A program made the translations under genes and the position numbers. Positions 14,023 to 43,275 of a stretch of DNA of 48,796 nucleotides are shown piece by piece (within the stretch, counting starts at the first letter, position 1; each line of letters begins with the position of its first letter). Source of the stretch: Elusimicrobiota bacterium (lineage in GTDB: Bacteria > Elusimicrobiota > Elusimicrobia > Elusimicrobiales > UBA9959); NCBI GenBank assembly GCA_027340875.1, contig DAIENX010000024.1, positions 1-48,796 on the forward strand. Direction: 5' to 3'. The notes beneath the pieces were generated by a model that saw only the letters and a list, made by a program, of their open reading frames with translations, was not told the origin of the DNA and did no database searches.

Positions 14023-14059
14023 CGCTGGCATGAGTAACTATTTTGCTGTTTTGTTACTA

Positions 14060-14112
14060 ATTTCAACGTAAGTCGCAAGACCCTTGTTCGGTCAAGTCAT
14101 TGCGGTTAAACT
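14060..14112 (+). promoter_or_regulatory. Sigma70-like promoter with a 16-bp dyad box overlapping the -35
   Basis: TAAGTC-GCAA-GACCCT, then TTGTTC-N17-TAAACT. Homologous to 20231-20283. Confidence 0.6.
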
Positions 14113-16668: not shown

Positions 16669-16676
16669 CGCGGACC

Positions 16677-16712: not shown

Positions 16713-16751
16713 ACCGTTCCCGGAAGCAGTCGATCGCGCGGCGGCGGCATT

Positions 16752-18209: not shown

Positions 18210-18249
18210 ACGGATTGCATAAAGTGGATGGTTTCAGTGAGGTGACCTT

Positions 18250-19195: not shown

Positions 19196-19233
19196 TCGGC
19201 TCCCTTCAAATTTCCCGCGGCAAAGGCCGGCAT

Positions 19234-20193: not shown

Positions 20194-20230
20194 CGCGGCT
20201 CCGGGAGTTAATTCGCCGCGTTTAGTTCGC

Positions 20231-20283
20231 ATTTCAACGTAGGTCAATGGACCCTTGGCGGCGCCGCTCCCCGCGCGTAAACT
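20231..20283 (+). promoter_or_regulatory. Sigma70-like promoter with a 16-bp dyad box overlapping the -35
   Basis: ATTTCAACG-TAGGTC-AATG-GACCCT, then TTGGCG-N17-TAAACT. Confidence 0.6.
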
Positions 20284-22281: not shown

Positions 22282-22468
22282 CACCCCTGAAAAGACCGCG
22301 TAAAAACTATTTCACGCGCCAACCCGGCGCGGGCCGGCCTCGGCCGCGCCCGCCGAACGGATACTTGCAGCCGGCAGGGACTTCTCCTGCGTTATGGGTC
22401 TGAGAACTGCTGGTCAGTGATGCCGCAGTGAAGCCCGTCCGCGGCCGCCATACGCTTGCCGGCGATTC

Positions 22469-22586
22469 AAAATAACATCTTTAGTTCTCCCTCGCGCGTA
22501 AGTCTCCGGGGCAGGAGCGGGGGGGCGAATAACATGCGCTATGGTGCCCCGCGCCCCAGGCGGTCCGGTGCGGTGCGGGCTAAAAT
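22469..22586 (+). promoter_or_regulatory. Fixed-spacing island promoter element, copy A
   Basis: AAAA 22469, CGTAAGTC-TCCG-GGGCA 22497, CAGGC 22557, TAAAAT 22581. Confidence 0.7.
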
Positions 22587-22700
22587 ATTCTCATGGACGC
22601 AACTTCCGGCAAAGGACGGGTTCAGCCGATAATTATGAGAAAAGCGATGCTTCTCCTCACGATTCCCCCGGGGCAAAGGAGCACGGAGTTGCTGAAAATT

Positions 22701-23750
22701 ATGCCTGCGCCGGGCAGGCGCGCGCTTGCGGCGGCTCTCCTGGCAGTTCTTTCAGCCACTGTGCAGGCGGCGGCCGCCGTGCTCTGCTTCAACGACCGGC
22801 CGTTCTACCAGATAGATCGTTTCGCCCCGGACCTCCCTTCTTACGTGGACAGGGATTTCCGCCACCTGGCGCCGTTGAGCGGCTATATCAGGGAAATGGA
22901 CAACTACTCCATCAGGCTCTGTCCTGGCGCCATCGCCCTGGACAGCCTGCAGCCGCGCGACCGCGAGGACCTGGCGCGCAATAACGACAGGTTGTGGGAG
23001 GACGAGTACAAGTACAACATCCACAACAACGTCCTGTCGCAGGACATGGGGCTTTACCACCAGCTCTATTTTCCGTACGAGCTGTTCACTCCAGCCGCCG
23101 CATTCCCGTCAGCAGCGGAGACCGCCGGCCCGGCGGAGGCGGACATGCTCAATTCCACGGCCGCCGCGCTCTGGGGCATACTCGACAATGTCTGCAACGA
23201 CGGCGACGGACAGAAGGCCAGGGTCAAGTACCTTTTCGGGCGGCGGATGTGCGGGGACCAGAGCGGCGAACTGCGTTCCCGGATGCGCGATCTCCGGAAA
23301 GCGGCGCGCGCGCTGGCGCGGCGGAACGGCGAACTGCGCCTGGCCGGCAAAGCCCACCCGCTGTTCGTGCAATTGCTGCTGGAGGAGCTGGCCGGGGCTT
23401 ACGTCTGGGGCGGGCCGATGACGGCTGTCAACGCGAATTTCCCGGAAGCGCGTAAGGAGACGATACTGAGGGTCTCGAGATTCCTCGCGGATACGCCTCT
23501 CACTTGCGCCCAGTTAGGCTTGTGGCCGCTGCACGCGCGGGCGCTGCTGGCCGCCACGCAGCACAGGGCCACTATCATTCCGGGAGTGAACGGCGTAAGC
23601 GACTACAATTCACCTGCCGGCAGGCTGGCCTATAAAGCCGCCGCCATCTGCGGCGAGTACGGGAGCGGGGCCTCTTCGTTCTACGATCTCGAAACCACGG
23701 CCCCCAGGGACCTGTACCTGCTGGACGCAGGCTACGAGGAAAAACCATGA
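22701..23750 (+). CDS. Exported hypothetical protein
   Basis: Signal-like RRALAAALLAVLSATVQA. Alternative starts at 22593 and 22635. ATGA overlap with the next gene. Confidence 0.65.
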   Translation: MPAPGRRALAAALLAVLSATVQAAAAVLCFNDRPFYQIDRFAPDLPSYVDRDFRHLAPLSGYIREMDNYSIRLCPGAIALDSLQPRDREDLARNNDRLWEDEYKYNIHNNVLSQDMGLYHQLYFPYELFTPAAAFPSAAETAGPAEADMLNSTAAALWGILDNVCNDGDGQKARVKYLFGRRMCGDQSGELRSRMRDLRKAARALARRNGELRLAGKAHPLFVQLLLEELAGAYVWGGPMTAVNANFPEARKETILRVSRFLADTPLTCAQLGLWPLHARALLAATQHRATIIPGVNGVSDYNSPAGRLAYKAAAICGEYGSGASSFYDLETTAPRDLYLLDAGYEEKP

Positions 23751-25681
23751 CAGGAACAGCGCGCTTTATTCTGCCTCTGCTGACGCTCTGCGCGGGCGCG
23801 GCGCACGCCCTTACCGCGGCAGACGCGGTCGAGGATTACTATAAATACGACCTGAAGCGCGGCTACGTCACGCTGGCCGTCCACACCGAGCTCAAGCCGG
23901 GAGAGGTCTGCTCGCACGAGTCGGGGCCGCTGATGGACACTATGATGGCGGGCCGCCTGGCGCTCGACGCGGCCTGCACGGAGAACCAGTGGGGGCGCAG
24001 CTCCCTCTACGACGTGAAGAAGATCGACAAGAACGCCCTCTGCGGCGCCATAGTGGTGGTGGAATGCCTGGACAACCGCGGCGGCTACGGGCGCATCCCG
24101 CCGCCGCTGGCGCTGGACAAGGCGATGCGGGAGGATTACCAGGCGAACGGCCTGCAGCCGGGAGAGTTTTATACGGCCGCCATGGTCAAGGAGATGTTCC
24201 GTATAGGGAACCAGAACTGCTCTCAGATGACGCATACCACGGCCGGTTCCGTCATGCCGGGAATGGGCAGGGACTGCTCCTCCGAGGAGGCGCAGAGGTG
24301 GGCGAAGATCTTCATACGCGGTATCCTGCGCGGCCTGACCATAGGAATGGGGCAGGCCAACGCGCGCATGGGGCAGGTGATGGTCCAGGGCAGCCTCGCC
24401 CAGGGCAACGCGCTCCTTTCCATGGGCCAGGCGCAGATGCAGGGCATGCAACTGCTCGCCAGCGGACAGGTGCAGGGCATGACTCTGCTGGCCCAGGGGA
24501 ACAGGGAGATAGGTTTCAACATGGTGCGCATGGGTCAGGTAATGGCCCAGGGCCAGGCCGCCATCGCGGCCGGGCAGGTGCAGGGCATGCAGACGTTAAG
24601 TTCCGGCATGATGACCATGGGCCACGCGCTTACGAGCATGGGCGCTACGATGGGTTCGGCCATGAATTCGCTGGCCGCCGCGCAGACCGCCGGCATGAGC
24701 ATGCTGTCCGGCGGCATGCTAAATACCGGCCAGGCGGCGGTCCAGATGGGCGTGACCATGGGAAACGCCATTCTCAGCCAGGGGCAGGCCATGGCGAAAG
24801 GCCAAGCCATGCTCGCCCAAGGACAGGTAGGCGGAATGAAACTTCTCTCGGCCGGGATGGTGCAGCAGGGGACCAGCTTGATGCTCATGGGGCGCCAGAT
24901 GGCGGATTCGCAGGCGATGATAGCCCTGGCGCAGACAGGCGGTATGGCTACGCTGGCGGAAGGTCTGGCCAGCACCGGCCGGAGCCTGCTGCAGACCGGC
25001 GAGATGATGGCCAAGGGCCAGGCCGGCCTGGCCGAAGGAGAGGTGCTTGGCAGCAGGCTGTCGGCCCAAAGCATGAAAGAACTCGGCGGCCGGCTCGTGG
25101 ATATCGGGCGCCGCATGTCGGAAAGCCAGGCGCTGCTGGCTTCCGGCCGCACGGACGGGATGAAGGAACTGATGGCCGGAGTGGCCGCCGCGGGCAGTTT
25201 CCTGGTGGAGGGCGGCGTCGCCATAACCCCGCCCGTAGACGGCGGCCTCCTGGCGCGCCGGGGCGAAGCCCTGGCGCGCGGACTCTCCCTTACTGCCGCG
25301 GGCGCGGCGGATGGCCAGGCGGTGTTGGGTGAGGGTCTGTCCGGCGTAGGCGAGGCGCTCCTCTCCTCCGGCATGTCGCTTTCGCAGGGCTACAGGCGCA
25401 TAGCGCTGGGCGACGCTGCTTCGGCCCGGGAACTCCAGGCCGGCATTTTGCGCCTGGGCAGGACGCTGTCGGAGATACAGCGCGCGCCGGCCGGCGTGAA
25501 CATAGAGGCCGTCAGGAACAACGGCCGACTCCTGACGGAGATAGGCGAAGCCATGTCCCAGGCGCTGTCCGATCTTGCCGTAGGCCGCACCGAAGGCATG
25601 AAAGCGGCCATAGAGGGCCTCGACCGGATAGGCGTGGAAATGCTGGCTTCCGGAGCGGCTGCCGCTTTCGGCGGAGTGTAA
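23747..25681 (+). CDS. Exported protein: Cys-containing N-domain plus Met/Gln/Gly-rich ~36-aa helical repeats
   Basis: Signal peptide ending AHA. Repeats like AQGQAAIAAGQVQGMQTLSSGMMTMGHALTSMGATM. Confidence 0.8.
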   Translation: MTGTARFILPLLTLCAGAAHALTAADAVEDYYKYDLKRGYVTLAVHTELKPGEVCSHESGPLMDTMMAGRLALDAACTENQWGRSSLYDVKKIDKNALCGAIVVVECLDNRGGYGRIPPPLALDKAMREDYQANGLQPGEFYTAAMVKEMFRIGNQNCSQMTHTTAGSVMPGMGRDCSSEEAQRWAKIFIRGILRGLTIGMGQANARMGQVMVQGSLAQGNALLSMGQAQMQGMQLLASGQVQGMTLLAQGNREIGFNMVRMGQVMAQGQAAIAAGQVQGMQTLSSGMMTMGHALTSMGATMGSAMNSLAAAQTAGMSMLSGGMLNTGQAAVQMGVTMGNAILSQGQAMAKGQAMLAQGQVGGMKLLSAGMVQQGTSLMLMGRQMADSQAMIALAQTGGMATLAEGLASTGRSLLQTGEMMAKGQAGLAEGEVLGSRLSAQSMKELGGRLVDIGRRMSESQALLASGRTDGMKELMAGVAAAGSFLVEGGVAITPPVDGGLLARRGEALARGLSLTAAGAADGQAVLGEGLSGVGEALLSSGMSLSQGYRRIALGDAASARELQAGILRLGRTLSEIQRAPAGVNIEAVRNNGRLLTEIGEAMSQALSDLAVGRTEGMKAAIEGLDRIGVEMLASGAAAAFGGV

Positions 25682-25784
25682 CGCGCCATTATTGCGCGCG
25701 TTAAGCGCTGACTGCGGCGCCAGGGTGAATTAAAGATACTTTCCAGCGCTGTGCATGGAGTATCGTGATTTGGTGCGGAAAAAC

Positions 25785-26026
25785 CAGACCTGTCCGGTTA
25801 AAATTTAAGGGGAACCCTTCGTAATGGTAAAATTCTTTTGTCCAGAAAGCGTTTTACCGACGGAGGATTCCCTGTGTCCCATTATAACACAATAATGCAC
25901 CAACTGCTTACGCTCGTGCCCCGACATCACTTCAACAAACTGGCTGCTGGGCTTGACTCTGACCGTTACGTCAAGACCTTTACCTCCTGGAACCAATTCT
26001 CAACACTTCTTTATGCCCAGGCCGGC
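25785..26026 (+). mobile_element. IS4-family element remnant (left end plus the first ~50 codons of the transposase, DUF4372-like)
   Basis: CAGACCTGTCCGG end-like sequence at 25785. GGAGG RBS and GTG at 25874 give VSHYNTIMHQLLTLVPRHHF...DRYVKTFTSWNQFSTLLYAQ. Confidence 0.75.
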
Positions 26027-26183
26027 GGCTCGCTTTACATCTCCGACAATCTCTCTTTCCGGCTGTACACCCCGGAAGAGAACAACTGGTTCATCCCGGT
26101 ATTCTCTTTCAGCGAGACCGGCGTGTGGAAATACGCCCCTGCGGCCCTCCGGGAAACGGAGACCGCCGAGGGCCGGCGGATTT

Positions 26184-26466
26184 ATGGCGAAGAACAAAGG
26201 CGTTAACGCGGCGGCAATGGCCGCCCTTCTCCAGCTCGCGGCGGGTTCCGCCGGCGCGGCTCCGGCCTTTGTATATCTGCGCGGCTATCCGGGCGACATC
26301 CTCTATACCGACGGCTCGCGGACCCTGGACATCACCCCGCCAGGTTTCGCGCGCAAGGCCGGCAACCCCTCCGTGTCGCCGGACGGGAAAAGGCTGGTCT
26401 TTCCCGCCAACCTCGACGACAACTGGGACCTGTACCTGGGGGAGTTCGACGGCTCGCGGCTGGCCG
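26184..26466 (+). pseudogene. Truncated near-identical duplicate of the 5' 283 nt of the TolB-like gene (19234-19516)
   Basis: Only a few substitutions relative to 19234-19516. Similarity ends abruptly after GGCTGGCCG. Confidence 0.9.
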
Positions 26467-26482
26467 CGGGCGGACGTGCATT

Positions 26483-26600
26483 AAAACCGCGTTTTTACTC
26501 CGCCACGAAGCGTAAGTCCCGGGGGCAGAGGGGGTGGACCGCATATTTCCACGCAATGGGGCCAACGCTCCATGCTGCCGGCCGCGGCGGCGGCTAAAAT
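26483..26600 (+). promoter_or_regulatory. Fixed-spacing island promoter element, copy B
   Basis: AAAA 26483, CGTAAGTC-CCGG-GGGCA 26511, CATGC 26571, TAAAAT 26595. Confidence 0.7.
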
Positions 26601-26687
26601 ATCCATGTGGCGGAACAGTGATAGCGGATCTTTCAGCTGCGGTAACGGTTCTGGCGCAGCCATCCGGCGGATATGGGAGGAATTTTT

Positions 26688-27290
26688 ATGAAAAGGCCCC
26701 TGGTCATGATCGTGTTCACCCTGTTCCCGTTTTTATCGCCTGTTGTCCACGCCGGACATGCGGAGAAAGCGGTAGACTCCCTAGTGGAGCTCGCCGGAGC
26801 CTCCGCCGGCGCTTCCGTGGCGCAGGAGATCATCCCCGAGCCTCGACCCGCGCAGTATCCCGGCGCAGGAGACCGCACTGCCGCGGCTGCCGCCGCCGAC
26901 CTGGCCGGTCTTGTGGAGAGTTTCCTGCGGGCGGATGAGCCCTTGAGGATAACCCTGATCGGACGCATCGGCGGGTTAAGGACCGCCGGATCGAACGCTT
27001 TTCTGAAGGCGGTATCCGGGCTGGAAGTGGAAAGGCCGGCGGTCCGTGCTGCCGCCTGCGAAATGCTGGGCGAAGCCGCGGCTCCGGGAGCAGGCGTTAA
27101 AAGCGGCTTAACCGCAGCCGCGCCGCTTGCCGGCAGTTCAGAAATGACAGCCGGGGACTCTCAGCTCACCCGGCCTGAAAAACTGGAACTTCTCAAGCAA
27201 TTCCTGCGCACGGTTACCGGCATTATCAACCGCTATAATTCGCCCGAACTGCGAGAACAATACGGCGCCGCTCTCGGCATCAGAGGCTGA
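26688..27290 (+). CDS. Exported hypothetical protein
   Basis: GGAGG RBS. Signal peptide MKRPLV...VVHA. Confidence 0.7.
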   Translation: MKRPLVMIVFTLFPFLSPVVHAGHAEKAVDSLVELAGASAGASVAQEIIPEPRPAQYPGAGDRTAAAAAADLAGLVESFLRADEPLRITLIGRIGGLRTAGSNAFLKAVSGLEVERPAVRAAACEMLGEAAAPGAGVKSGLTAAAPLAGSSEMTAGDSQLTRPEKLELLKQFLRTVTGIINRYNSPELREQYGAALGIRG

Positions 27291-27423
27291 ACGGCAGCCT
27301 TAACTGTCTGTGACCGGGATCCCCGGCTCCGCGTTCACGGGAACCCGATACGCGATCCCATCGGGTTTGGGACCGCGTCCCGCCCTCCTTCGCAATTCTC
27401 CCGCCGAGCGCCCGCCGCGGACC

Positions 27424-27542
27424 AAAAGCGTGATTTTAACGCGTTCCGCGGCGTAAGCCGGCAGGGCAAAAAACGTAGTGCCAAATACGCCATAACCGGC
27501 GGCCGGCCGGCTCAGGCGCGCCGGTGCGTCTACGACTATAAT
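27424..27542 (+). promoter_or_regulatory. Fixed-spacing island promoter element, copy C
   Basis: AAAA 27424, CGTAAGCC-GGCA-GGGCA 27452, CAGGC 27513, TATAAT 27537. Confidence 0.7.
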
Positions 27543-27612
27543 ATTCGCGACACAACACAACATCGCCTGGCTTATGCGGCGCAGGTCGCCATGAGCATCA
27601 AGGCAGGGAGCT

Positions 27613-29022
27613 ATGATGAAAGGTACACTTAAAATTATTTCCACGGCGGCATTCCTGGCGGCGGCCTTTCTTTCCCCGGGCCTTTCCCCGGCCGGGGAGA
27701 ACTGGGCCGCCCCGCTGCTGGAGAATCCCGTTCCGCGCTGCCTTCCGGACGCCGCGGGAACGCCGGCGCCTTCCAGGCCGCCGCGTGCGCCCGCCACGCT
27801 GATGTTCTATCTGGACGATCAGAACGGGGGGGACTATGTTGACAGCTATATAGCCCGCCAACTGAAGACCATAGAGGACCTCAGCCGCAGGAACAGGGCC
27901 GTCCGCTGGCTGACGATCTCCGCGCAGAACGGCGCGCTCCCGGAAGGGAAGCGCTATGAGCTGGAGGAACAGAACCTGGCCGTAACCGAATGGGACGGCG
28001 GCACGCCCGTTCCCAGGGGGGACTTCAGGACCGAACGCAAAGAGCAGAAGCCCTCTTTTTCCAACCCGGCGGTACTGGCTTATTTCGTGGAAAAAGGGCT
28101 GGCGCTGGGGTCCGCGCGCAATATCCTGGTCATGGCGGACCACGGCGAGGGCAGCCACGGACTTATGACGACCACCCTGAAAGAGAACGGGAAGGACCTT
28201 AAAGAAATAATGCGCAACAGGGACGCCGCGGCCGCCCTCGCCGGCGCCATGAAGAAGACCGATTCCAGGATAGACCTCATCGTCCTGGACGCCTGTCTTA
28301 TGAGCAGCATCGAGGCCATGACCGATTTCCGGGAAGAGGGGCTTGAGATGCCCGTAGTCGCGTCGGAGAACACGACCACCCCGACAAGCGGCTCCCTTAA
28401 TTACCGCAAGGTCTTCGGGGGCGCGGCCGACGCGCTGGAGGAAGGCGGACCTTTCGACGCGCTCCTTTCCGGGGCCGCGATCGTGGAACAGAGCAAGGGC
28501 AACAGCGCCATAGATCTCTCGCTGGTGAATCTGCGGCTCCTTACCAAAGACCTGCTAGAAAGCCTGAACGGCCTTTTCTCCGGGCTGGCCTCCGAACTGC
28601 GCGAACCGAAGAAGAACAAAGCCTACAGGAAAGCCTTCCTGGCGAAAATAACGGCCGAAAAGACAATAAACGTAGGCGAGACCGAAATAGATCTCCGCGC
28701 CTGGCTGCAAATGCTTCAGAAGCTCAAGAGCCTCTCGGAAGGCGTCAGAAATTCCGCCGCGGAGATAGAAAGAACGGCTTTCCCGGAAACGTCCTCGGCG
28801 GACGTCTCAAAACTGGTCGCCGCCTCTGAAAACGACAAGGCGGCCTATACCAGCGAAAAAGGCCTCTCCATTTCGCATCCGCTGGTTATCGGAGAGGAGC
28901 CGCTGGGGGTTTTCGAAGCCGACTGCAGGCACGCCGAAAGCCTGCGCTTCTCGGCTTTGACGGGTTGGGCGGAAGTTCTGAAAGCGTATGCGGGCGTCGA
29001 TGCCTGCGAAGGGCCCCGGTAA
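27613..29022 (+). CDS. Divergent exported clostripain-family (C11) peptidase
   Basis: Signal peptide, TLMFYLDDQN, NPAVLAYF, MADHGEG, IDLIVLDACLMSSIE, VASE. Confidence 0.8.
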   Translation: MMKGTLKIISTAAFLAAAFLSPGLSPAGENWAAPLLENPVPRCLPDAAGTPAPSRPPRAPATLMFYLDDQNGGDYVDSYIARQLKTIEDLSRRNRAVRWLTISAQNGALPEGKRYELEEQNLAVTEWDGGTPVPRGDFRTERKEQKPSFSNPAVLAYFVEKGLALGSARNILVMADHGEGSHGLMTTTLKENGKDLKEIMRNRDAAAALAGAMKKTDSRIDLIVLDACLMSSIEAMTDFREEGLEMPVVASENTTTPTSGSLNYRKVFGGAADALEEGGPFDALLSGAAIVEQSKGNSAIDLSLVNLRLLTKDLLESLNGLFSGLASELREPKKNKAYRKAFLAKITAEKTINVGETEIDLRAWLQMLQKLKSLSEGVRNSAAEIERTAFPETSSADVSKLVAASENDKAAYTSEKGLSISHPLVIGEEPLGVFEADCRHAESLRFSALTGWAEVLKAYAGVDACEGPR

Positions 29023-29241
29023 GGCGCGGCTGCCTGGAAAAGCGCCCGCAGCGCTGTCATCAGACGAAACTTCCCGGCCGAGAACGCGAGAAGGTTCTCC
29101 CTGATAACCGGGGCGCCGGAAGCTTGGAAAATTGCCGTATTTTGCGGCTTACGGAGCAAGACATGAATAAGCGGTTTACGGAACACAGATAGCGTTAGTG
29201 TTGAAGCAGCACGAAGCCGGGGTCCCGGCGGCCGCGGGGCT

Positions 29242-29412
29242 GCCGTCGCGGCTTTCAGGGAAGGAGGCAAACTGATACAGGAGTTCCGCGTGCTGCCCAA
29301 CGGCATGGTGGGGTCCGCGATCAGAATGGAAGGAGAGAAGGAGGCGGTGGGTTACAGCTATTATCCCTGGAGAGCCAAGGTGGACCCGAGGATGATTCCC
29401 TTCATTTACTAA
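29242..29412 (+). pseudogene. Orphan C-terminal fragment paralogous to the end of the 14859-15680 protein
   Basis: AVAAFREGGKLIQEFRVLPNGMVGSAIRMEGEKEAVGYSYY versus AIAAYEEDKELIQEFRVSDGWIVAEMRRHGEPGAVAYSYY. No in-frame start upstream. Confidence 0.75.
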
Positions 29413-29442
29413 GTCCGGCACTGGGGAGGTATCCCAGCCGGA

Positions 29443-29475
29443 GAAAAAGCGGCCCGAAGGCCGCTTTTTCTTTTT
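29443..29475 (+). terminator. Intrinsic terminator
   Basis: GAAAAAGCGGCC-CGAA-GGCCGCTTTTTC-TTTTT. Confidence 0.85.
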
Positions 29476-29508
29476 CCTCAAGAATTTGCGCGGGCATGCT
29501 CGCGCATC

Positions 29509-29626
29509 AAAAACGCTTTTTTGATGCGCGCGTCCGCGTAAGTCCTGCGGGCAGAACAGGGAGGCCGTATTACGGACCTACCGGGGGCATTGGCCTCATG
29601 CGGCGCGGCCCGGCGGAAGCTAAACT
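29509..29626 (+). promoter_or_regulatory. Fixed-spacing island promoter element, copy D
   Basis: AAAA 29509, CGTAAGTC-CTGC-GGGCA 29537, CATGC 29597, TAAACT 29621. Confidence 0.7.
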
Positions 29627-29674
29627 ATCCTTATGAAGCCCGGCGGCAAAAAACCGGTAATAGAGAGGAAGAAT

Positions 29675-31912
29675 ATGAACAAGAACATAAAGACCCTGAT
29701 GGCGGCCATAATGTGCGTCTGCGCGGCGCAGGCCGGCGCGGCGGACTTCGGCCCGGAGGCCCTCTCGGGCCTGTCCTTTTCGGACGGGGTGAGGGCGCTC
29801 AAGGAACAGTCCGCGGCTCTCGGAACGCCCGCCGTTTCCACGGCCGCGCCGGTCTCTACGGAACTGCAGCATTTCATGGAGGAACTGGGGCGGGACGTGG
29901 CCGACAGCGTCTGCCGCAACGCCCAGCTCAAGCTGAACCGTGAAAGCACGCTGGCCGACGTAGCCGGCCTTTCCGGCGGCTTCCGCCGGCGCTTCCGCAG
30001 GTACGCCGACGGCAAACTGGCCCTGCTGGACGAGGCGAACGTCACCCTAATCAGCAATCTGGGCAACGAAACGCTGCACCTGCCGAACCTGGGCGCGCTG
30101 GGCGTAAATATTTCCGCTGTTCTGGACGGCCGGTCCCAGGTGGTGCGCCCGCTGGAGAGCGACCGCTACTGCAAGGAGATGAAAACGCTCTTCAAGCTGC
30201 GCGAGGTGAAGACAATTATTCCCGCCACGGCCGGGCGTATAGCCGCCATGAAGAACGGCGAGCTCTGGAAGCTGCCTATTACGCTGCACTTCGGCTTCAG
30301 CGTGGGCGCCGGCGCCAACGTGGGCGGCAACCTGGCGGTCTCCGTCTCTGCCGGCACGGCCAAGGAGCGCAAGCCGTCCGTGACGCTTTACCGCATGGAC
30401 GAGGGCAAACTGCGCCTGCGCCTGCGGCTGGACCGCGTCAGCGTGCGCAGCTCCGGTATCTCGCTTTCGGCCATAGAGGTGCCCTTCTCCGACATAGGCC
30501 AGGCCGGCGCCGAGAACCTCTTCGCCCGCGAACTGGGCAAGGAATGGGCCAGGGAGGCCAACAAGAACCTGGCCTTCAGGCTGTCCTTCGGCCGGTCCAC
30601 CAGCCTCGGCAAGCGGCTGCTGCTGGAGTTCATCCTCGACCCGCGCGACCAGGCGCAGATGGCCGGTCTGGAGAAGTTCCTGCGGGGCGACCTGGGCGTG
30701 ATCAAACGCTTCATAGAGATGGGGCTGCGCTTCGACAACCTCTCCGAGGACGAGAATGTCGCCGAAGGCGCCGGCGAGATAGAAGGCATTTCAGGGGAAG
30801 CCGGGCAGACCATAGGCGCGCAGGCCGCTTTCGCCGGCAGCAACCTCTACCACGGCCACGGCCACAGCGTGCAGGTGCAGCTCCCGATACTGCACAACCA
30901 GACCGTGGGCTGGGGCTCGGCCTATAACCGTTACCAGTCGCTCGCCAGGGACGGCGAGACGCTGCACGCCCAGTCCTACAGCCGCACCTCCAACGCGGCC
31001 TCCATTAACATCCCCTTCATAGGCAGCAACTCCAAATACGACTCCTCGCGCGGCGTCACCGTGGTGAACCGCGAGCGCAAGGACGGCTCGGTTACCCGCG
31101 CCAGCCTGATGTACAACCAGTACGAGGGCTTCGTCAGCGACGGCGACAACGCCGCCCGCTACATGATGAACAACGCCAACGGCGTGCTCAAGTACGTGGG
31201 CCGCCGCGGCGACGGCGTGGATAATTCCAACACCGTGCCGGCCATGGGGCTCTTCCCGCCGGACTTCGGCCAGCCGGTGCCGCCGCAGGTGGTGAAGACC
31301 AAGCTCTACGACAAGGTGATAATGAGCTTCAGCCTGATGATCAACGCCAACGGCGTGGAGGAGGTTGTGCTGGCCCCGGCCAACGCCATCCTGCGGGCCT
31401 ACCTGAACATGATGCGCGAGGCCGAAGGCGCCATCCTGGACAAGGTGGCCGACCTCTTCAGCGTCGGCGCAAAAGGCGAGGTCTCCTACGACAGGGCCGA
31501 AGCCGCCCGCCGCCTGGGAGCCTCGGCGCTGGATTCCGCCAGTTCCGACAGCCCCCTCAATATAGTCCACAGGCTGGCCTATACCGCCGCCTGCGTCATA
31601 AGCGACATAGCCTCCGCCCGCGACGCCGCCGGCTGGAAGGAGCGCTCGGAGAAGCTGGCCATGTCCGTGGGCGGCCGGTCCCGCAGCGGCCTGAAGTACG
31701 AGGATTTCCTCAAGGTGGCCGTGCAGCTGGTCAGCCCGGAGAACGTCTCCGCCTCGGTGTACGTCCTCACCGACAAGGGCGTGCCCGGCGAAGCCGACGT
31801 AGCGCAGACCTACAGGTTCTTCAACACTTCCGACAACAGCGTGGGGGAGGACATGACCGAGGTGACGCAGATGGCCAACCGCTTCGCCGCCGGCTCGGAG
31901 CTGACGGACTGA
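29675..31912 (+). CDS. Large exported hypothetical protein (about 745 aa)
   Basis: GAGG RBS. Signal peptide MNKNIKT...AQAGA. Host-like codon usage. Confidence 0.85.
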   Translation: MNKNIKTLMAAIMCVCAAQAGAADFGPEALSGLSFSDGVRALKEQSAALGTPAVSTAAPVSTELQHFMEELGRDVADSVCRNAQLKLNRESTLADVAGLSGGFRRRFRRYADGKLALLDEANVTLISNLGNETLHLPNLGALGVNISAVLDGRSQVVRPLESDRYCKEMKTLFKLREVKTIIPATAGRIAAMKNGELWKLPITLHFGFSVGAGANVGGNLAVSVSAGTAKERKPSVTLYRMDEGKLRLRLRLDRVSVRSSGISLSAIEVPFSDIGQAGAENLFARELGKEWAREANKNLAFRLSFGRSTSLGKRLLLEFILDPRDQAQMAGLEKFLRGDLGVIKRFIEMGLRFDNLSEDENVAEGAGEIEGISGEAGQTIGAQAAFAGSNLYHGHGHSVQVQLPILHNQTVGWGSAYNRYQSLARDGETLHAQSYSRTSNAASINIPFIGSNSKYDSSRGVTVVNRERKDGSVTRASLMYNQYEGFVSDGDNAARYMMNNANGVLKYVGRRGDGVDNSNTVPAMGLFPPDFGQPVPPQVVKTKLYDKVIMSFSLMINANGVEEVVLAPANAILRAYLNMMREAEGAILDKVADLFSVGAKGEVSYDRAEAARRLGASALDSASSDSPLNIVHRLAYTAACVISDIASARDAAGWKERSEKLAMSVGGRSRSGLKYEDFLKVAVQLVSPENVSASVYVLTDKGVPGEADVAQTYRFFNTSDNSVGEDMTEVTQMANRFAAGSELTD

Positions 31913-32094
31913 CGGGCCGAAGAGGTGATCAAGGTGGAACGGATGGATCTGAGCGCCCTTAAGCCGCTGGTGGAGATAATGACCTGCCGCCGGTTAGAAC
32001 ATCCCTCCACGCCTCGTTACCAGCGGCCGGATGCTCAGCATTGGAATCACGCGCAACTGCCGCTCCGGGGCGGATCCGCGCGTTCCGGGACAAG

Positions 32095-32200
32095 GCCTTT
32101 GCTGCTTGTGCTGGGCGGCGGGGTCGGCAATGGCCTCAGGTTATCCTGACAACCACATGGACCAGCGCGAGGTGCTTGGCCGGGAGTCCGTGGCTGGAAA
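32095..32200 (+). pseudogene. Degenerate 5' fragment paralogous to 37323-37925
   Basis: AAGSAMASGYPDNHMDQ versus AAGGAMASGYPNNYMNQ. Boundaries are approximate. Confidence 0.7.
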
Positions 32201-32239
32201 TGCTGATGGGAACAGGGAAGCCTGTTCCGAGGATGGGCG

Positions 32240-33964
32240 ATGTCTATGTTATTCTCTGATGCTCTGCGCAAGTTGAGGAAAGACGCCGGGTTTCCTACTG
32301 CCTACCGCTTTTTTCATGATAACGGCGGACAGGCGGCGCTCGGGTTTTCCTACCGGCAATACATGGGCATGGAAAGCGGAATGCTGCCGGACGCGGACAA
32401 ATTGAGCCGGCTTATTCAGGCTCTCCGGCTCTTTTACCTGTCTCCGTGCTCCAACAGGCTCATAACCGCGTGGCTGCGCACGCGCGCCGGCGACGAGGCT
32501 TATGACCGGCTTATCAAGCCTTTCCTGCCTGCGCCGACCGAAGAAGAGGTTAAGACCCCCCTGTACGGTCTGGTGCGCGCGATGATGAGGGAACGGTCCT
32601 ATTACCTTTCCCACGAGCAGTTCGCGGCGTCCATGGCGGATTATCCCACGTACCTCTGTTACATGGCGCTGATCTCGGATACGGGGTTATGGTCTTCCGA
32701 CGGCCTGGCCGGGGCGCTGCACATTCAAAAAGAGGATGCGGACCGCGCGCTGAAGCGGCTGGCTGCGGCTAAAATAGCCAAAAGGGTGAGGCCGGGCCTC
32801 TACAGATGCGCCTTTCCACACAGGATGGTGCAGACTCCGCGGCTGAGCGCGATCTCCGCGGAACTATATAAAAAAGCTGATGAGAACGTCACGCGCCTGG
32901 CCGCGACCGCGGAAACGCGGCTGCACGAGGGGGTCTTCGTGCGGGCGGACAAGGACCAGTTCCTGGGGCGTTTCTCGCCTTCGCTGCGTTTCGCGGTCGA
33001 GGCGTCGCACGGCTACAGCGTGCAGGAAAAAAGCCCTACGACGGCGATCTTTTACGTGGAAGGGCGGGTGGTCCAGGTGTGTGACTTCCGGCGCGGACGC
33101 GTGGAGGAAGAGCCGCGCGGGAGAACGCGGTTCTCGGATACGCTCAGGAAGTTCAGGCTGGAAGCCGGCTATCCGACGGCTTACAAGTTTTACCACGGCT
33201 GCGGAGGGCGGGCCGCCCTTGGAATATCCTACCGCCGCTATCTGCTGCTGGAACAGGGTGAGCCTCCGGAGGGAGGAGTGCTCCTGAAACTGCGGCTTCT
33301 CCTGTCTCCCGCGCCGCCTGACGCGCGCGCCGGCGCCTTTGTCGCGGCCTGGATAAGGACTGTGGCCGGAGAGGAGACCTACAACGGGCTGATCTTGCCT
33401 CTGCTTTCCGCCGCGGCAGGCGGGACGCACCCTCCGGCCGCGCAGGCAGGGCCGGCATGCGGCAGGCCGGAGTTGCGGCTGCTCTCGCTGCCGCAGGCGG
33501 AAGCGGTATTGTACGACTATGACGCTTTTGTCTGTTTTACCGCTCTCAGCGCGGATGGCGGAGTCTGGACCCCGCCCGGGCTTTCCGGTGCGCTGCGGCT
33601 TGATGCCGCCGCGGCCAGGAAAGCGCTGCAACGGCTGGCTAAGGCGGGGGTGTTGCTGAAAGAAGGCGCAAACGGCTGCAAATCCGCTTTTGCCCCCGCG
33701 GCCGCGGACCTGCCAAGAACGGACATGGACTCCGGACTGCTCCGCAAATTGGGAACTTATACCGACAGGTTCGCGGGGAGCGGCTGTCTGCGTCACAGGG
33801 CCAGGAACTTCTTCCGGGCGGAGGCGGGGGAGGTTATGGGAAGCTACCTGCCGTTGCTGCGGCAGAGCCTTGAGACTGCGCGCAACAGCGGCGTCCGCGG
33901 GGGAACGGAGGATTCCACCCTTTTTTACGTCGAATGCAGCCTGGCGAAAGTCCGGGATTTCTGA
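32240..33964 (+). CDS. Two-unit fusion of putative HTH regulators (XRE-like HTH, winged helix and C-terminal domain, twice)
   Basis: FSDALRKLRKDAGFPTAYRFF and FSDTLRKFRLEAGYPTAYKFY. The halves align to 40761-41612 and 41622-42467. Confidence 0.75.
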   Translation: MSMLFSDALRKLRKDAGFPTAYRFFHDNGGQAALGFSYRQYMGMESGMLPDADKLSRLIQALRLFYLSPCSNRLITAWLRTRAGDEAYDRLIKPFLPAPTEEEVKTPLYGLVRAMMRERSYYLSHEQFAASMADYPTYLCYMALISDTGLWSSDGLAGALHIQKEDADRALKRLAAAKIAKRVRPGLYRCAFPHRMVQTPRLSAISAELYKKADENVTRLAATAETRLHEGVFVRADKDQFLGRFSPSLRFAVEASHGYSVQEKSPTTAIFYVEGRVVQVCDFRRGRVEEEPRGRTRFSDTLRKFRLEAGYPTAYKFYHGCGGRAALGISYRRYLLLEQGEPPEGGVLLKLRLLLSPAPPDARAGAFVAAWIRTVAGEETYNGLILPLLSAAAGGTHPPAAQAGPACGRPELRLLSLPQAEAVLYDYDAFVCFTALSADGGVWTPPGLSGALRLDAAAARKALQRLAKAGVLLKEGANGCKSAFAPAAADLPRTDMDSGLLRKLGTYTDRFAGSGCLRHRARNFFRAEAGEVMGSYLPLLRQSLETARNSGVRGGTEDSTLFYVECSLAKVRDF

Positions 33965-34081
33965 CGTTTACCGTAGTCAACTGCGGCAGTTCTTGTTTAT
34001 CGAGGAGAATGACGGAGATACTACGGAAGCTATGATAATGGGCATGATGTCAGTTATGGCGAAGGTGCGCCGGAGGGTGCT

Positions 34082-34474
34082 ATGGCGAAACGGTTGCTGA
34101 TAATTGACGACAACGAGGGCTACGCGAGTATCGTGGCCAGGTACTTCGTGGCCGTAGGCGGCTACGAGGTGGAAACCGCGTGCTGCGGCGCCGAGGGGTT
34201 GGAGAAAGCCTCTCGGATGAAGTTCGACGTGGTGCTGGCTGACATGATGCTGCCGGACATGGACGGCTGCGACGTGGCCAGGGAGCTGGAGAGGAAAGGC
34301 GTGGAGTCCCCGGTGGCTATACTGTCGGGATATGAAGCCCAAAAAGTGATCAAGTGGGGCATGGCGAAAAGCGGGCTGCCAGGGAACCTGCGGCGGGTCC
34401 TTTCCAAGAGCGAGAAGCTTGGCGAGATCCTTGTCAAAGTGAACGGACTGTCTGGTGACGCCCTGGCGGTATAG
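34082..34474 (+). CDS. Stand-alone response regulator receiver
   Basis: LLIIDDN, LADMMLPDMDG, LSG. GGAGG RBS. Confidence 0.88.
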   Translation: MAKRLLIIDDNEGYASIVARYFVAVGGYEVETACCGAEGLEKASRMKFDVVLADMMLPDMDGCDVARELERKGVESPVAILSGYEAQKVIKWGMAKSGLPGNLRRVLSKSEKLGEILVKVNGLSGDALAV

Positions 34475-34613
34475 GTTTTCGCCCTGCCCTGGTTCGTCCG
34501 GACAACGCGGGCATCGGCCGGCCTGAACAGCGGCATATCTTCGGCCAAGCATTGTCGAAGTCCGCGCAGAACTTGTTCCAGCTGCGCCAGGAAAGCGGGA
34601 TACGTAGCAATAA

Positions 34614-34659
34614 TAGGTCCAATGGTCCTTGCCTATCCGGATATTTCCCTCAATAATAT
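34614..34659 (+). promoter_or_regulatory. Putative promoter with dyad box TAGGTC-CAAT-GGTCCT
   Basis: The box overlaps TTGCCT. AT-rich -10 candidates at 34652-34659. Precedes leader-family gene 7. Confidence 0.45.
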
Positions 34660-34690
34660 ATTCAATAACCGGAAAGCCCGTGGTTGCATT

Positions 34691-35647
34691 ATGAAAACGC
34701 CGCTCAGGATGATAGCTGCCGCGACGATAACCGCCGCCGCCGCGTTCTATCTTTACGGCCAGCGGCCGCAGAGTCATATTCCGGCGGATCTCAGGGATGC
34801 CGTGGCCGGCAGCGCCGCGGAACAGCTCGGCTATGACAAGGGCGCGGATGTCCCCGTCCCGGTGCCGGGCCCGGCGCAGGCCGCAGCCGGCAAGAAGATA
34901 TATGTTTCCGGCTGGCCGGCGGACGGTGTTCCCGGACGGCCGGTGGAATGGGTCAGGTTCGGAGGTGGCAGGTTCTTGATGGGCGCAGAGGACCTTAGAT
35001 TCTGTCCTGAAGCCCGGCCCGCTCACGAGGCCGCGGTAAAGCCTTTCGAGCTCTCCCGGACCCTCGTGACGGTGGAGCAATACGCCGAATGCGTGGTCAG
35101 GGGCAAGTGCCCGCTTCCAGGCACCGATAAGAACAGCAACGCCGGCGCCAACTGCAACTGGGGCAAGGAAGGCAGGCAGTTCCACCCCATAAACTGCATC
35201 ACCTGGGAGCAGGCCAGGCAGTACGCCAGGTTCAAGGGCGCGAGACTCCCTACCGAAACCGAATGGGAATTCGCCGCCACCGGCGGCGGCAGGGCGCAAA
35301 AATATCCATGGGGCGACGAACCGCCGACCTGCGCCCGGGCCGTGATGGACGAAGGGGGCCCCGGCTGCGGCGGCAAGGCGACAATGCCCGTCTGCTCCAG
35401 GCCGAAAGGCAACACGGCGCAGGGACTTTGCGACATGGCCGGCAACGTAAGCCAGTGGCTGGAGAATAAGGCCACCAGTTCTTACGGCGGCGAGGCGGAC
35501 TGGATGCCCAAGCGGGCCACCAGGGGCGGGAATTTTTACCGGGACGGCGGCGAGAGCGGCTATCTGAGGGCCCAGTTCCGCGATTTCGGCATGGAAGACG
35601 AAGTGAAGGACTACAACGGCTTCCGCATCGCGCGCTATCCCCGCTGA
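34691..35647 (+). CDS. HIPxDLRDA-leader family protein 7: formylglycine-generating-enzyme (FGE-sulfatase / CLec fold) cargo
   Basis: RPQSHIPADLRDA, then GGRFLMG, HPINCITWEQA, RLPTETEWEFAA, GLCDMAGNVSQW, RGG..GFRIAR. Confidence 0.9.
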   Translation: MKTPLRMIAAATITAAAAFYLYGQRPQSHIPADLRDAVAGSAAEQLGYDKGADVPVPVPGPAQAAAGKKIYVSGWPADGVPGRPVEWVRFGGGRFLMGAEDLRFCPEARPAHEAAVKPFELSRTLVTVEQYAECVVRGKCPLPGTDKNSNAGANCNWGKEGRQFHPINCITWEQARQYARFKGARLPTETEWEFAATGGGRAQKYPWGDEPPTCARAVMDEGGPGCGGKATMPVCSRPKGNTAQGLCDMAGNVSQWLENKATSSYGGEADWMPKRATRGGNFYRDGGESGYLRAQFRDFGMEDEVKDYNGFRIARYPR

Positions 35648-35745
35648 GCCGGGTAAGTCGCTGACGTCCAGCGTATTGCCCTGGGTCCCAGGGACAAGAT
35701 CCACACGGAAAGTCCGGCGGCCTGGCCGTCCGGACAGGGGAAAAG

Positions 35746-35770
35746 AAAGCGGCCTTAGGCCGCTTTTTTA
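35746..35770 (+). terminator. Intrinsic terminator
   Basis: AAAGCGGCC-TTA-GGCCGCTTTTTT. Confidence 0.8.
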
Positions 35771-35871
35771 TCTTCCCTTCCAGAAAACCCCGGCCTTTCA
35801 AGGCCGGGTATGAATGGCAGCCCGGGCTAGAACTGCCCGTGCTCCGCCGCGGCCTGCCGGAGACGCGTAAC

Positions 35872-35990
35872 AAAAGGGTGTTTTTAAAGCGTTCGGGCGC
35901 GTAAGCCGTGCGGGCAATCCGCCTGGGAAATATAACTGCAGCGGCGGGGGGCCGGCGCCTCATGCGTGCGGGCCTCCTGACCGGTAAACT
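35872..35990 (+). promoter_or_regulatory. Fixed-spacing island promoter element, copy E
   Basis: AAAA 35872, CGTAAGCC-GTGC-GGGCA 35900, CATGC 35961, TAAACT 35985. Confidence 0.7.
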
Positions 35991-36083
35991 GTATATACGC
36001 AGCCGCGTTAACGCGGCCGCGCCGGAAAATCTACGGCAGACGGCAGTAAGGCGCTCCGGAACAACATATAAGGAGAAAGTAAA

Positions 36084-36995
36084 ATGACGAAGATGATAGC
36101 GATGCTGATACTGGTTTCCGTCGCGGGCGCCGCCCGGGCGGGGGAATTCGAGAAAGCTGCCTCGGCCGCTTCGCTTGAGAAGGTTAATATAACTCAAGCC
36201 ATGGAGGCAAAGGTCGCAGTCCCGAGGCCGGAAATAGTTCCTCTTTCAGCCGCGGAGGTCCTGGAGATGCACCGCGCCAAGCTCATGGCCATACCGGGCG
36301 TGACCGGCCTTAAGGTGCTTGGTCACGGCGGCGAGCAGGCCATAGTGGTGACTTTCAGCAGCGAGAAGACCTACAAGGACGCCGTCAGGAAGAAGCTGCT
36401 GCCCGCGGCCCTCTACGGCTACCCCGTGGGGCATACGATAGAGAGCGACAAGATAGCCCCGCTCTCGGACATGGCTTATGAAGCCAATCCGTTCTGTTAT
36501 ATCCTCAGCAACGACCAGGGCCGCTGCAGCGCCACCCCCGGCTGTTCCTGGACCCCCGCCTCGGACGAGTCTTACTGCGCCGGCCGGCCGGGAATGAACC
36601 CTACTCAGACCCAGTTCTGTTATATCAATAACAACAATCCGGCCGGTTGCAACAACACCCCGTTCTGCCGGTACGTGCGGAACGTGATGCCTTCGTCGTG
36701 CAATTCCAGGCCGCCGGCGCCCCAGCCGTACTACCCACCGCAGCCGGGGCCCCAGCCTCAGCCGCATAACCCGTTCTGTAATATCCTCAGCAACGACCAG
36801 GGCCGCTGCAGCGCCACCCCCGGCTGTTTCTGGACCCCCGCCTCGGACGAGTCTTACTGCGCCGGCCGGCCGGGAATGAACCCTACTCAGACCCAGTTCT
36901 GCTATATCAATAACAACAATCCGGCCAAGTGCAACAACACCCCGTTCTGCCGGTACGCGCAGAACGTAATGCCTTCGTCGTGCAACTCCCGCTAA
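36084..36995 (+). CDS. Exported protein with two 75-aa Cys-rich repeats
   Basis: AAGGAG RBS, signal peptide ending ARA, duplicated 8-Cys module. Confidence 0.85.
   Translation: MTKMIAMLILVSVAGAARAGEFEKAASAASLEKVNITQAMEAKVAVPRPEIVPLSAAEVLEMHRAKLMAIPGVTGLKVLGHGGEQAIVVTFSSEKTYKDAVRKKLLPAALYGYPVGHTIESDKIAPLSDMAYEANPFCYILSNDQGRCSATPGCSWTPASDESYCAGRPGMNPTQTQFCYINNNNPAGCNNTPFCRYVRNVMPSSCNSRPPAPQPYYPPQPGPQPQPHNPFCNILSNDQGRCSATPGCFWTPASDESYCAGRPGMNPTQTQFCYINNNNPAKCNNTPFCRYAQNVMPSSCNSR
36486..36992 (+). repeat. Intragenic direct repeat of 225 nt, two copies (36486-36710 and 36768-36992)
   Basis: Near-identical DNA copies separated by a Pro/Gln linker. Confidence 0.95.
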
Positions 36996-37045
36996 CCGGG
37001 CCGGAACCAGATAATTTGGGCGATTATATTTTAGGGGAAGAAGGC

Positions 37046-37267
37046 ATGAAGAAATGTGCGATGGTGGCGTCCGTGCTGTGCATGGCAGGCGGGGGAAATG
37101 CGGCGGATTTTGGCGCTTTCTGTGGCGTCACGGCCGCCGGACTTAAGGAGGGTTTTGCCGGAAGGTGGGCTGAAGGTCCACCCGCGCGTGCCCAAGTCCG
37201 CCGGCGCCGGAATACTCTGACCGGCGGCAGCGGCAGGAGAGAACGCTGCGCGGCGGAATACGCTTAA
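37046..37267 (+). pseudogene. Short ORF with a signal peptide, probably a truncated secreted-protein gene
   Basis: MKKCAMVASVLCMAGGGNAADF.. then a non-protein-like tail. Confidence 0.4.
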
Positions 37268-37322
37268 CGGTCTATTCTAAGGAAGTTTAAAACTATATTA
37301 CCTGAAGGAGATAACACGGATT

Positions 37323-37925
37323 ATGAAGAAAGCGATGATAGCGGTTGCGTTGGCGGTGATGGCGGCGGGCGGGGCGATGGCCTCCGGCTATCCTAACAAT
37401 TACATGAACCAGAGCGCGGTGGCCGCGGTTAACGGCCCGGCGGTGCTGGCCGAGGTGAGCACCGTGCAGGCCGGCCAGAAGTACGTGATAGCCTATAAAG
37501 GCTCCGGCATGCTGGCGGGCAAGGCCGGAGAGGTCAACGCCTACCTGAAGGTGCATTACAAACTCATCCCCTTCAACAGCAGCCTGGGCGGCGTTATTCC
37601 CGGCACGGCCGAGAAGCAGATAAAGCTCATGCCGGAATGGCACGGCGCCGGTTACATCAGCGGCGAGCTGTCCCAGAACAGCAGCTGGGGCAACGACGGG
37701 CTGGTGCAGCTGCCCGCGCAGGCCGTCACTTATAACAGGCTGCAGATCGAGAGCGTGGAACTGGCGTTCAACGCGGCTGGCCAGTGGGATTCCGTCTATG
37801 GGAAGAATTACGTGATCGTCATGGACAACCTGTACCGTTCCGGAGAGCGCTTCCAGTCGGCCGAGGCTTCGCAGAACATAGCGAACGACGTCTGGAACTT
37901 CATAGTGGGGCTGATGCGCAGGTAA
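37323..37925 (+). CDS. Exported beta-rich hypothetical protein
   Basis: AAGGAG RBS and signal peptide. ELAFNAAGQWDSVYGKNY loosely resembles a CBM21-like end. Confidence 0.8.
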   Translation: MKKAMIAVALAVMAAGGAMASGYPNNYMNQSAVAAVNGPAVLAEVSTVQAGQKYVIAYKGSGMLAGKAGEVNAYLKVHYKLIPFNSSLGGVIPGTAEKQIKLMPEWHGAGYISGELSQNSSWGNDGLVQLPAQAVTYNRLQIESVELAFNAAGQWDSVYGKNYVIVMDNLYRSGERFQSAEASQNIANDVWNFIVGLMRR

Positions 37926-37980
37926 GAGGCCGTAAGGCAGGAACGAATGCTGCCGGAGAACAGCGCTTACGCCGCGTACC

Positions 37981-38099
37981 AAAACTGGGTTTTTGGGCCA
38001 TAGCGCGGCGTAAGCCGGCCGGGCAACTGGATTAGGCGTAAATATCGTTCCTGCGTAGGTCTCCTTCCTCATGCGCGGAGCCTGCATGAAGACTACACT
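37981..38099 (+). promoter_or_regulatory. Fixed-spacing island promoter element, copy F
   Basis: AAAA 37981, CGTAAGCC-GGCC-GGGCA 38009, CATGC 38070, TACACT 38094. Confidence 0.7.
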
Positions 38100-42468: not shown

Positions 42469-42622
42469 GGTCTGTTGAAAAGCCCCTTTCAGCGTCTTTT
42501 GGCCGGCGCCTTTGCGCCGCTCTACTCACAGTCTCTCGTCGAGAATGCTCGTTTCGCATCGCTGCGGCTCGGCTTCAAAATCGGCTCAAAATACATCAGA
42601 GTAGGCTTTTTTCAACAAGACT
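42469..42622. mobile_element. MITE-like element with IS5/IS1182-style inverted ends
   Basis: GGTCTGTTGAAAAGCC ... GGCTTTTTTCAACAAGAC. No credible ORF inside. Confidence 0.55.
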
Positions 42623-42664
42623 GCTGATCCGGCTTTAAAGCTGGCAAGCGGGGCGGTCCTTGTC

Positions 42665-43056: not shown

Positions 43057-43275
43057 GAGATCATGGGGATGGGTTAGCAAAACCGTCGCGGGATGGAGCG
43101 AAGCGACAGTTCTGTGACCCGAGCTTGCGTAAGCGCGAGGGTCGGGTGGAGCGAAGCGACACCGCAGTGTGCCGAGGCGCGCGCACGGTGGCCGCTTGTT
43201 GAGCATAGCTCTTTATGCGGCACGGCCACAGGCCAGTGCGCGACGCCGTGTTTTGCGTTCCATCCCCATGAGCTC
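43057..43275. mobile_element. MITE/REP-like structured element
   Basis: Terminal inverted repeat GAGATCATGGGGATGG / CCATCCCCATGAGCTC. Internal direct repeat TGGAGCGAAGCGACA at 43094 and 43147. Confidence 0.6.

Follow-up and report, generated by a model that had tools for sequence, protein, structure and literature searches.

A fixed-spacing promoter module repeated before predicted exported-protein genes in an Elusimicrobiota genome, and its two candidate regulators

Introduction

What switches on a series of genes for predicted exported proteins that share an almost identically spaced set of upstream boxes and little else? The question is raised by a 48,796-nt contig of an Elusimicrobiota bacterium of the UBA9959 lineage (GCA_027340875.1, DAIENX010000024.1), here called the window, which is contig C66 of the 2.8 Mb source genome (G000). 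Six copies of an element carrying the motif GCGTAAGYC-N4-GGGCA lie in this window. Very little has been published on how transcription is controlled in Elusimicrobiota, and a literature search that did not extend to subscription journals and bioRxiv supplements found no description of the element. The copies are best read as sigma-70-type promoters with two tiers of sites, a proximal tier for a candidate response regulator and a distal palindrome for a candidate regulator with an XRE-like domain and a winged helix.

Results

Six copies in the window, twelve in the genome

The original prediction, made from the letters of the window, had described the motif as free of mismatches in six copies. 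It occurs exactly six times, always on the + strand (Table 1), against chance expectations under a second-order Markov model of 0.0012 in the window and 0.07 in the genome. The predicted distances were recovered in all six copies: AAAA starts 28 nt upstream of CGTAAG, a TAnAnT −10 hexamer starts 84 or 85 nt downstream of it, and CA(T/G)GC starts 24 nt before that hexamer. The spacers between the boxes are as divergent as had been claimed, with a column identity of 0.36 compared with 0.31 expected at random. Each copy precedes, on the same strand, a start codon that lies 42–87 nt from the inferred start site and opens an open reading frame (ORF) with a signal-peptide-like leader, in keeping with the secreted-protein genes that had been expected there; leaders were judged by eye and by a crude rule, not by SignalP.

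The element had been taken as a feature of this stretch, to which it is not confined. The source genome holds 12 full copies, six on the window contig and six on contig C53. By match quality, nine elements are exact, three have one mismatch and two are degenerate, the last being one element on C53 and a variant on C11; a further one-mismatch match to the motif, on C3, comes without the other boxes. All 12 copies point to the next gene and end in the −10 hexamer. The products behind them are mostly uncharacterised predicted exported proteins, clostripain-family peptidases among them, and are mostly unrelated to one another, although four have N-terminal or wider similarity and two have a common leader. 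A sequence-only model of the 12 copies, many of whose weak matches span only the downstream half, matches 58 of the 80 genomes of the taxonomic family (the source genome included) and 39 of the 42 others of the genus.

The −10 of the element is the commonest −10 type of the genome, in which 11 matches to sigma-70 region 2 were found; given so common a −10, a dedicated alternative sigma factor was set aside as an explanation. The hexamer 17 bp above it reads A(T/G)GC-NN in 12/12 copies. A scan for consensus sigma-70 promoters recovered none of the six window copies, its match count being at the level of shuffled sequence. Class II activators are those whose site overlaps the −35 region, and here a −10 hexamer is combined with a non-consensus −35 that is overlapped by a putative activator site. 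The predicted poor −35 and activator-dependent, sigma-70-type promoter with phased sites is thereby supported and fits every test run. Judged from sequence, the repeats are real, conserved, fixed-spacing promoter-type modules before predicted exported-protein genes.

The proximal boxes resemble a genome-wide palindrome

The upstream regions of the source genome contain 20 exact matches to the 16-bp palindrome TRGGNC-N4-GNCCYA, compared with 1.5 in shuffled sequence; these counts are approximate because the gene calls came from a home-made codon model, whose mis-calls include an antisense ORF over copy 6 and the regulator on contig C109 described below. Among the spacers between TRGGNC and GNCCYA, only N4 is clearly enriched, N5 weakly and the others not. 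In 28 cases, against 0.9, the start of the 16-bp site falls 38 or 39 nt above a −10 hexamer, and by the crude rule 43/47 ORFs behind such promoters have signal-peptide-like leaders, compared with 493/1148 overall.

The boxes of the element correspond to a weak full 16-bp site at −38 from the −10 hexamer, together with left halves at −60/−61 and −82/−83. The right half of the −38 site is the CA(T/G)GC region, and the left half at −82/−83 is the TAAGYC of CGTAAG. The half-sites are phased, as had been proposed, and the single 22-bp period is replaced by periods of 22 and 22–23. Mean scores in the 12 copies are 3.9, 1.7 and 3.4 bits for the three left halves and 1.9 bits for the right half of the proximal site (null −12 ± 6.6). 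The best upstream full site has a mean of −1.7 bits in four element promoters, compared with 6.9 in 17 others. If the −10 hexamer starts at −12, the proximal site is centred at −42.5, and the two boxes above it are left halves only. By these matches, the proximal boxes belong to a putative regulon much wider than the 12 copies.

A NarL-family response regulator as candidate reader of the proximal tier

The source genome encodes three NarL-type regulators, one of them on contig C109. Across 151 genomes of the class, at least three exact 16-bp sites occur in 91/99 genomes with a close orthologue of the C109 regulator, in 3/11 with an intermediate one and in 0/41 without. Since related genomes are not independent, this co-occurrence shows range, not binding. 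The other two NarL-type regulators, considered as readers, are present in 5 and 31 of the 151 genomes and do not track the site.

The C109 regulator is 77–95% identical across 11 aligned orthologues. Its KTVKN segment aligns with K179/K182/N183 of DevR, which PMC4082495 gives as base contacts, and the K, K and N are invariant in 12 orthologues. The best solved structural match to its DNA-binding domain is DegU (PDB 7X1K); its full-length best matches are VraR/LiaR-type proteins, which score above DevR. The gene sits downstream of a receiver-histidine-kinase gene, whose product starts with a receiver domain and has no sensor domain in its assembled part. These features make the NarL-family C109 response regulator a likely reader of the proximal boxes.

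In C109:25807–28132 (L144, L147), response regulator and kinase stand directly before a Flp-pilin-like gene and TadE-like genes, and a pilin-like ORF is also found behind the response regulator in L149–L151.

The distal box is a 26-bp palindrome at a fixed offset

The AAAA and T-run of the original prediction lie where it had placed them, but they make up the inner part of both arms of a 26-bp palindrome, CG-N-A-(C/T)-Y-AAAA-N6-TTTT-R-(G/A)-T-N-CG, with G and C invariant at mirror positions in 12/12 copies. Arm pairing peaks at a single centre (14.2 of 26, compared with 2.8–10 when shifted). The palindrome is separated from the first half-site by a 10-bp gap, or 31 bp centre to centre, which is three helical turns.

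A palindrome matrix was run on the 557 half-sites of the genome that have a −10 hexamer at a suitable distance. The top 13 were the 12 copies and, as number 13, a held-out promoter of the window with a single 16-bp site (score 12.7; null 0/4456 at ≥8), which the original prediction had not listed. The 14th, also in the window, is weak (score 2.6). Among 5507 half-sites of other genomes, the matrix gave 21 matches at offsets −1/0, and no other offset had more than two.

The distal box always lies 27–30 nt above the first response-regulator half-site. Its position is −120 when three sites are present and −96 to −99 when there are two, a difference of one repeat unit. Its offset is the same in one-, two- and three-site forms, and the length of the module changes in two-turn steps. 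In most relatives, the same central half-site is paired head-to-head with one upstream, as TAGTGAnn-N5-nnTCACTA. As read from these forms, the general layout is one of three half-site positions, of which two or three are kept per promoter.

A family of XRE+winged-helix regulators accompanies the distal palindrome

The window encodes two pairs of regulators of one family, one pair fused into a single ORF (Table 1). Elsewhere in the source genome the family is found at two loci only: a pair on C11, which immediately follows the gene that the C11 element variant precedes, and a single gene on C111. In the predicted structure (predicted local distance difference test, pLDDT, 84), residues 1–87 match XRE domains (Z about 7–7.7, root-mean-square deviation 2.4–2.8) and residues 123–207 match winged helices, the Z scores being middling. 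The modelled architecture, an XRE-like helix-turn-helix (HTH) followed by a winged helix, is that of DUF4423 and TIGR02147, which are the nearest named clusters by features and structure. The DUF4423 profile (PF14394) scores 21–22 bits, under the Pfam cut-off of 30, which falls short of formal membership. TIGR02147 was not matched in NCBIfam, Foldseek gave no match to the family model at E ≤ 0.001, and a metagenome scan with the protein encoded at 40761 as query found no relative.

A profile of the family finds 374 representative proteins, and members in 49 of the 80 genomes of the taxonomic family. In relatives, a family gene is found within 300 bp of 21/42 strong elements and within 10 kb of 31/42. 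Conversely, 38/85 family genes outside the training set have an element promoter within 450 bp, compared with 9/500 random genes. Element and family-gene counts per genome correlate within the genus (Spearman 0.70, for genomes that as kin are not independent). The original prediction had singled out the HTH proteins of the island as candidates for binding; the comparative data link them to the distal palindrome and not to the CGTAAG box. In six relatives, remote elements carry the same site as the regulator-adjacent element of the same genome, which fits regulators that act in trans, a requirement for the copies on C53.

One residue of the regulator covaries with the palindrome

In XRE domains, helix 3 serves as the recognition helix. 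We compared the regulators with the 43 of 59 adjacent promoters that had a scored palindrome. At residue 40, in the predicted helix 38–45 of the XRE-like domain, K goes with inner bases GG in 26/28 half-sites, compared with 2/36 for N; among held-out half-sites, GG was found in 20/22 for K and 0/10 for N. A tree built without the recognition helix has seven K/N changes at this residue. The covariation is suggestive and falls short of significance on the tree. The family copies appear to change their DNA target through one amino acid.

Gene pairs of the K+N type stand beside mixed sites (G002 C234, G002 C232 and G000 C11), and a K+K pair stands beside a GG/GG site (G003 C41). Together with the natural fusion in the window, these pairings point to heterodimers, and the window regulator pairs probably act as such. 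The most likely readers for the 12 copies are the two regulator pairs of the window, an assignment based on proximity, on how few other members the genome encodes and, more weakly, on residue 37.

Features of the window

Table 1. Promoter modules, related sites and candidate regulator genes of the window (positions in nt; single positions are starts).
Feature	Span	Strand	Distal palindrome	CGTAAG	Middle half-site	16-bp site	−10 hexamer	Downstream ORFs or remarks
Copy 1	22463..22586	+	22463-22488	22497	22521	22543-22558	22581	Heads ORFs 22635-23750 and 23747-25681
Copy 2	26477..26600	+	26477-26502	26511		26557-26572	26595	Heads ORF 26688-27290
Copy 3	27418..27542	+	27418-27443	27452		27499-27514	27537	Heads clostripain-family ORF 27613-29022
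Copy 4	29503..29626	+	29503-29528 (perfectly complementary arms)	29537		29583-29598	29621	Heads ORF 29675-31912
Copy 5	35866..35990	+	35866-35891	35900		35947-35962	35985	Heads ORF 36084-36995
Copy 6	37975..38099	+	37975-38000	38009		38056-38071	38094	Heads ORFs 38151-39008, 39062-39781 and 39809-40636
One-site form	14033..14112	+	10 bp above the single 16-bp site			14069	38 nt below start of site	Heads gene run 14160-19131
Probable second one-site form	20204..20283	+	weaker palindrome					Heads ORF 20326-22281
Lone response-regulator-type site	34614..34629	+	none			34614-34629		Precedes FGE-sulfatase-domain ORF 34691-35647
Fused tandem pair of XRE+winged-helix regulators	32246..33964	+						572 aa; candidate distal-palindrome reader
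XRE+winged-helix regulator	40761..41612	+						283 aa; first gene of unfused pair; candidate reader
XRE+winged-helix regulator	41622..42467	+						281 aa; second gene of unfused pair; candidate heterodimer partner

Five adjacent genes in the run behind the one-site form (14148–14271, 14847–14975, 15701–15831, 16748–16869 and 18226–18451) have about 120 bp of 5′ sequence in common at 82–94%, which encodes a single kind of leader ahead of unrelated protein bodies. This leader motif is seen again at 20326, at 34691 and beside a family regulator in the relative locus L164. Inside the ORF behind copy 5, a cysteine-rich 222-bp module is duplicated at 95% identity (36486–36989); in its N-terminal half the encoded protein shares 75% identity with the product behind a C53 copy, and the C-termini differ.

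A 284-bp fragment at 26183–26466, 98% identical to the 5′ part of a PD40-repeat gene (19233–19516), ends about 10 bp above the palindrome of copy 2, beside a scrap of an IS4-type (DUF4372) insertion sequence (IS; 25838–26020). The junction is evidently a recent rearrangement that removed upstream sequence and left the module intact.

Window 11070–12846, C80:20362–22269 and C53:1–354 are three paralogous copies of a promoter plus gene for a 580–600-aa repeat-containing protein. The C53 array reaches the contig end inside the third of these, and the locus may continue elsewhere. Short intergenic repeats at 42496–42623 and 43118–43261 each have many copies of 76–91% on other contigs, and are probably like repetitive extragenic palindromic (REP) sequences or miniature inverted-repeat transposable elements (MITEs). 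Window 1–712 is 90% identical to C88:1–712, the end of that contig, reflecting duplication or strain variation in the assembly.

Discussion

We propose, with a probability of roughly 0.6, that the copies are sigma-70-type promoters without a usable −35 that require two regulators bound in phase, a response regulator and an XRE+winged-helix dimer. The NarL/DevR-type C109 regulator would occupy the proximal site, whose centre lies near −42.5 relative to the start site, and recruit RNA polymerase as a class II activator, and the XRE+winged-helix dimer would read the distal palindrome three helical turns above the first response-regulator site. Because the response-regulator sites in the copies are half or weak sites, their occupancy would depend on the upstream dimer. 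The promoter would then work as an AND gate that fires only with both regulators, and the local regulator would select which exported-protein genes of the global regulon are expressed.

Several observations weigh against this reading. The right halves of the two upstream sites score −7.5 and −10.4 bits and are not half-site-like, so that the conserved GGGCA falls outside the half-site model; an additional direct half-site, 8 bp further on, or contact by the second protein might account for it. The copies of the source genome keep a tail-to-tail pair of half-sites, compared with the head-to-head pair of most relatives. The co-occurrence of regulator and 16-bp site is clade-level, any gene of that range would fit, and the comparison covered the three NarL-type regulators of a source genome that also encodes 15 of the OmpR type. 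For the distal tier, 11/42 elements in relatives have no listed family gene on their contig, and contig C53, with six copies, encodes no family member. The residue comparison dropped 16/59 promoters, which had no palindrome scoring >6; independent pairs on the tree number five with, none against and one unchanged for residue 40 (p = 0.0625), and 3/0/3 for residue 37 (p = 0.25). Four relatives have proteins with Q at residue 40, as in the window, and no matching promoter was found within the surrounding 8–16 kb.

Among the alternatives, the one that survives best keeps the same two readers with the opposite sign: the XRE+winged-helix dimer would repress, keeping the response regulator from loading cooperatively until a ligand or signal lifts the block. 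Repressors are frequent among the structural neighbours of the family domains (ImmR, P22 c2, ArsR/MarR types), and 32 of the 56 promoters adjacent to a regulator gene are divergent from it, as is common with repressors. We nevertheless regard repression as unlikely, since the palindrome does not overlap the response-regulator sites, helical phase is kept in all three forms, and the sites below the palindrome are weaker than in promoters that lack it, which fits help better than blocking.

Alternatively, one factor might suffice, the XRE+winged-helix protein reading both the palindrome and the CGTAAG, GGGCA and CCTCA boxes, with the likeness to the genome-wide palindrome a matter of ancestry. 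The family protein does have two predicted DNA-binding domains, and the three boxes are more conserved than the general palindrome requires. However, promoters and genomes without a family gene show no difference in the position or key bases of the proximal site, and in the short forms an ordinary half-site stands 28 nt below the distal site, so that a single factor seems quite unlikely.

It is improbable that the copies are remnants of duplicated promoter-plus-leader units that lack a dedicated second regulator. The common leaders or N-termini of some downstream genes, the 5′ sequence common to five window genes and the gene fragment that ends at the 5′ edge of copy 2 all speak for duplication. 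It would account for the spread of the element but not for its conservation: the spacers have decayed to near-random identity with boxes and spacing kept, the palindrome pairs base for base, and the site tracks a regulator residue across genomes.

Copies that punctuate a gene array, with one rearrangement junction at a copy edge beside an IS scrap, might also suggest a recombination site, a MITE or a structured RNA instead of a promoter, a reading that we give very little credence because 12/12 copies are co-oriented with the next gene and end in a −10 hexamer, spacers are divergent and length varies in two-turn steps. RNAalifold gave seven pairs with no compensatory change and Rfam three chance-level matches, none near the gathering score, and the only inverted repeat is the internal palindrome; together with the spacers, the orientation and the −10, these results rule out a structured RNA and speak against a MITE or an integron-type cassette site.

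The proposed two-regulator promoter can be compared with DevR (DosR) promoters of Mycobacterium tuberculosis. The candidate proximal reader is likewise of the NarL family, with the K179/K182/N183 residues conserved. DevR boxes are 18 bp with key G4, G5 and C7, arranged in tandem, at −42.5 and −63.5 (PMC3177182); here, too, the palindrome has G4, G5 and C7 conserved in each half (with a 16-bp core and N4), and both halves of the proximal site of the copies score. In DevR promoters, strong and weak boxes stand in tandem and in helical phase, two to four per promoter, with a proximal centre at about −42.5; the proximal site of the copies would take that position if the −10 hexamer starts at −12, and the two boxes above it are left halves only. 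The periods differ (22–24 bp here, 21 in DevR promoters), the upstream boxes here are half-sites, and an extra distal palindrome is tied to a second protein family, the targets being predicted exported proteins. Unlike DevR, the C109 regulator is not an orthologue with a haem sensor kinase, given the higher VraR-type scores and the receiver at the start of the neighbouring kinase.

DegU of Listeria monocytogenes and Bacillus subtilis has the KTVKNH sequence in common with the C109 regulator and, in B. subtilis, controls degradative-enzyme genes (PDB 7X1K; PMC9263151). The likeness to DegU is one of the DNA-binding domain, in contrast to the VraR/LiaR-type matches at full length.

The second family resembles the paralogous DUF4423/TIGR02147 families of Bdellovibrionota and Fibrobacterota in size (about 280 aa), in its N-terminal XRE-like HTH plus winged helix and in its paralogue expansions. 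No binding site or function for DUF4423/TIGR02147 was found in the literature, in which DUF4423 was met only as a table entry and TIGR02147 not at all.

A broader idea, which we advance tentatively and which may well prove wrong, is that the XRE+winged-helix paralogues form a reprogrammable address system: homo- or heterodimers would read half-sites set by one or two recognition-helix residues, each gating a class-wide DevR/DegU-like master regulator, at fixed phase, onto its own exported-protein cassette. The underlying logic, co-dependent activators at phased sites, is already known. For the biology of these bacteria, the element suggests that exported proteins in much of the class are under a putative master two-component regulator, and an uncharacterised regulator family gains a concrete candidate DNA target, a suggested residue-to-base rule and a predicted heterodimer. 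Were the address system real, DUF4423-like proteins would gain their first assigned function, and the DUF4423-like expansions in Bdellovibrionota and Fibrobacterota may work in the same way.

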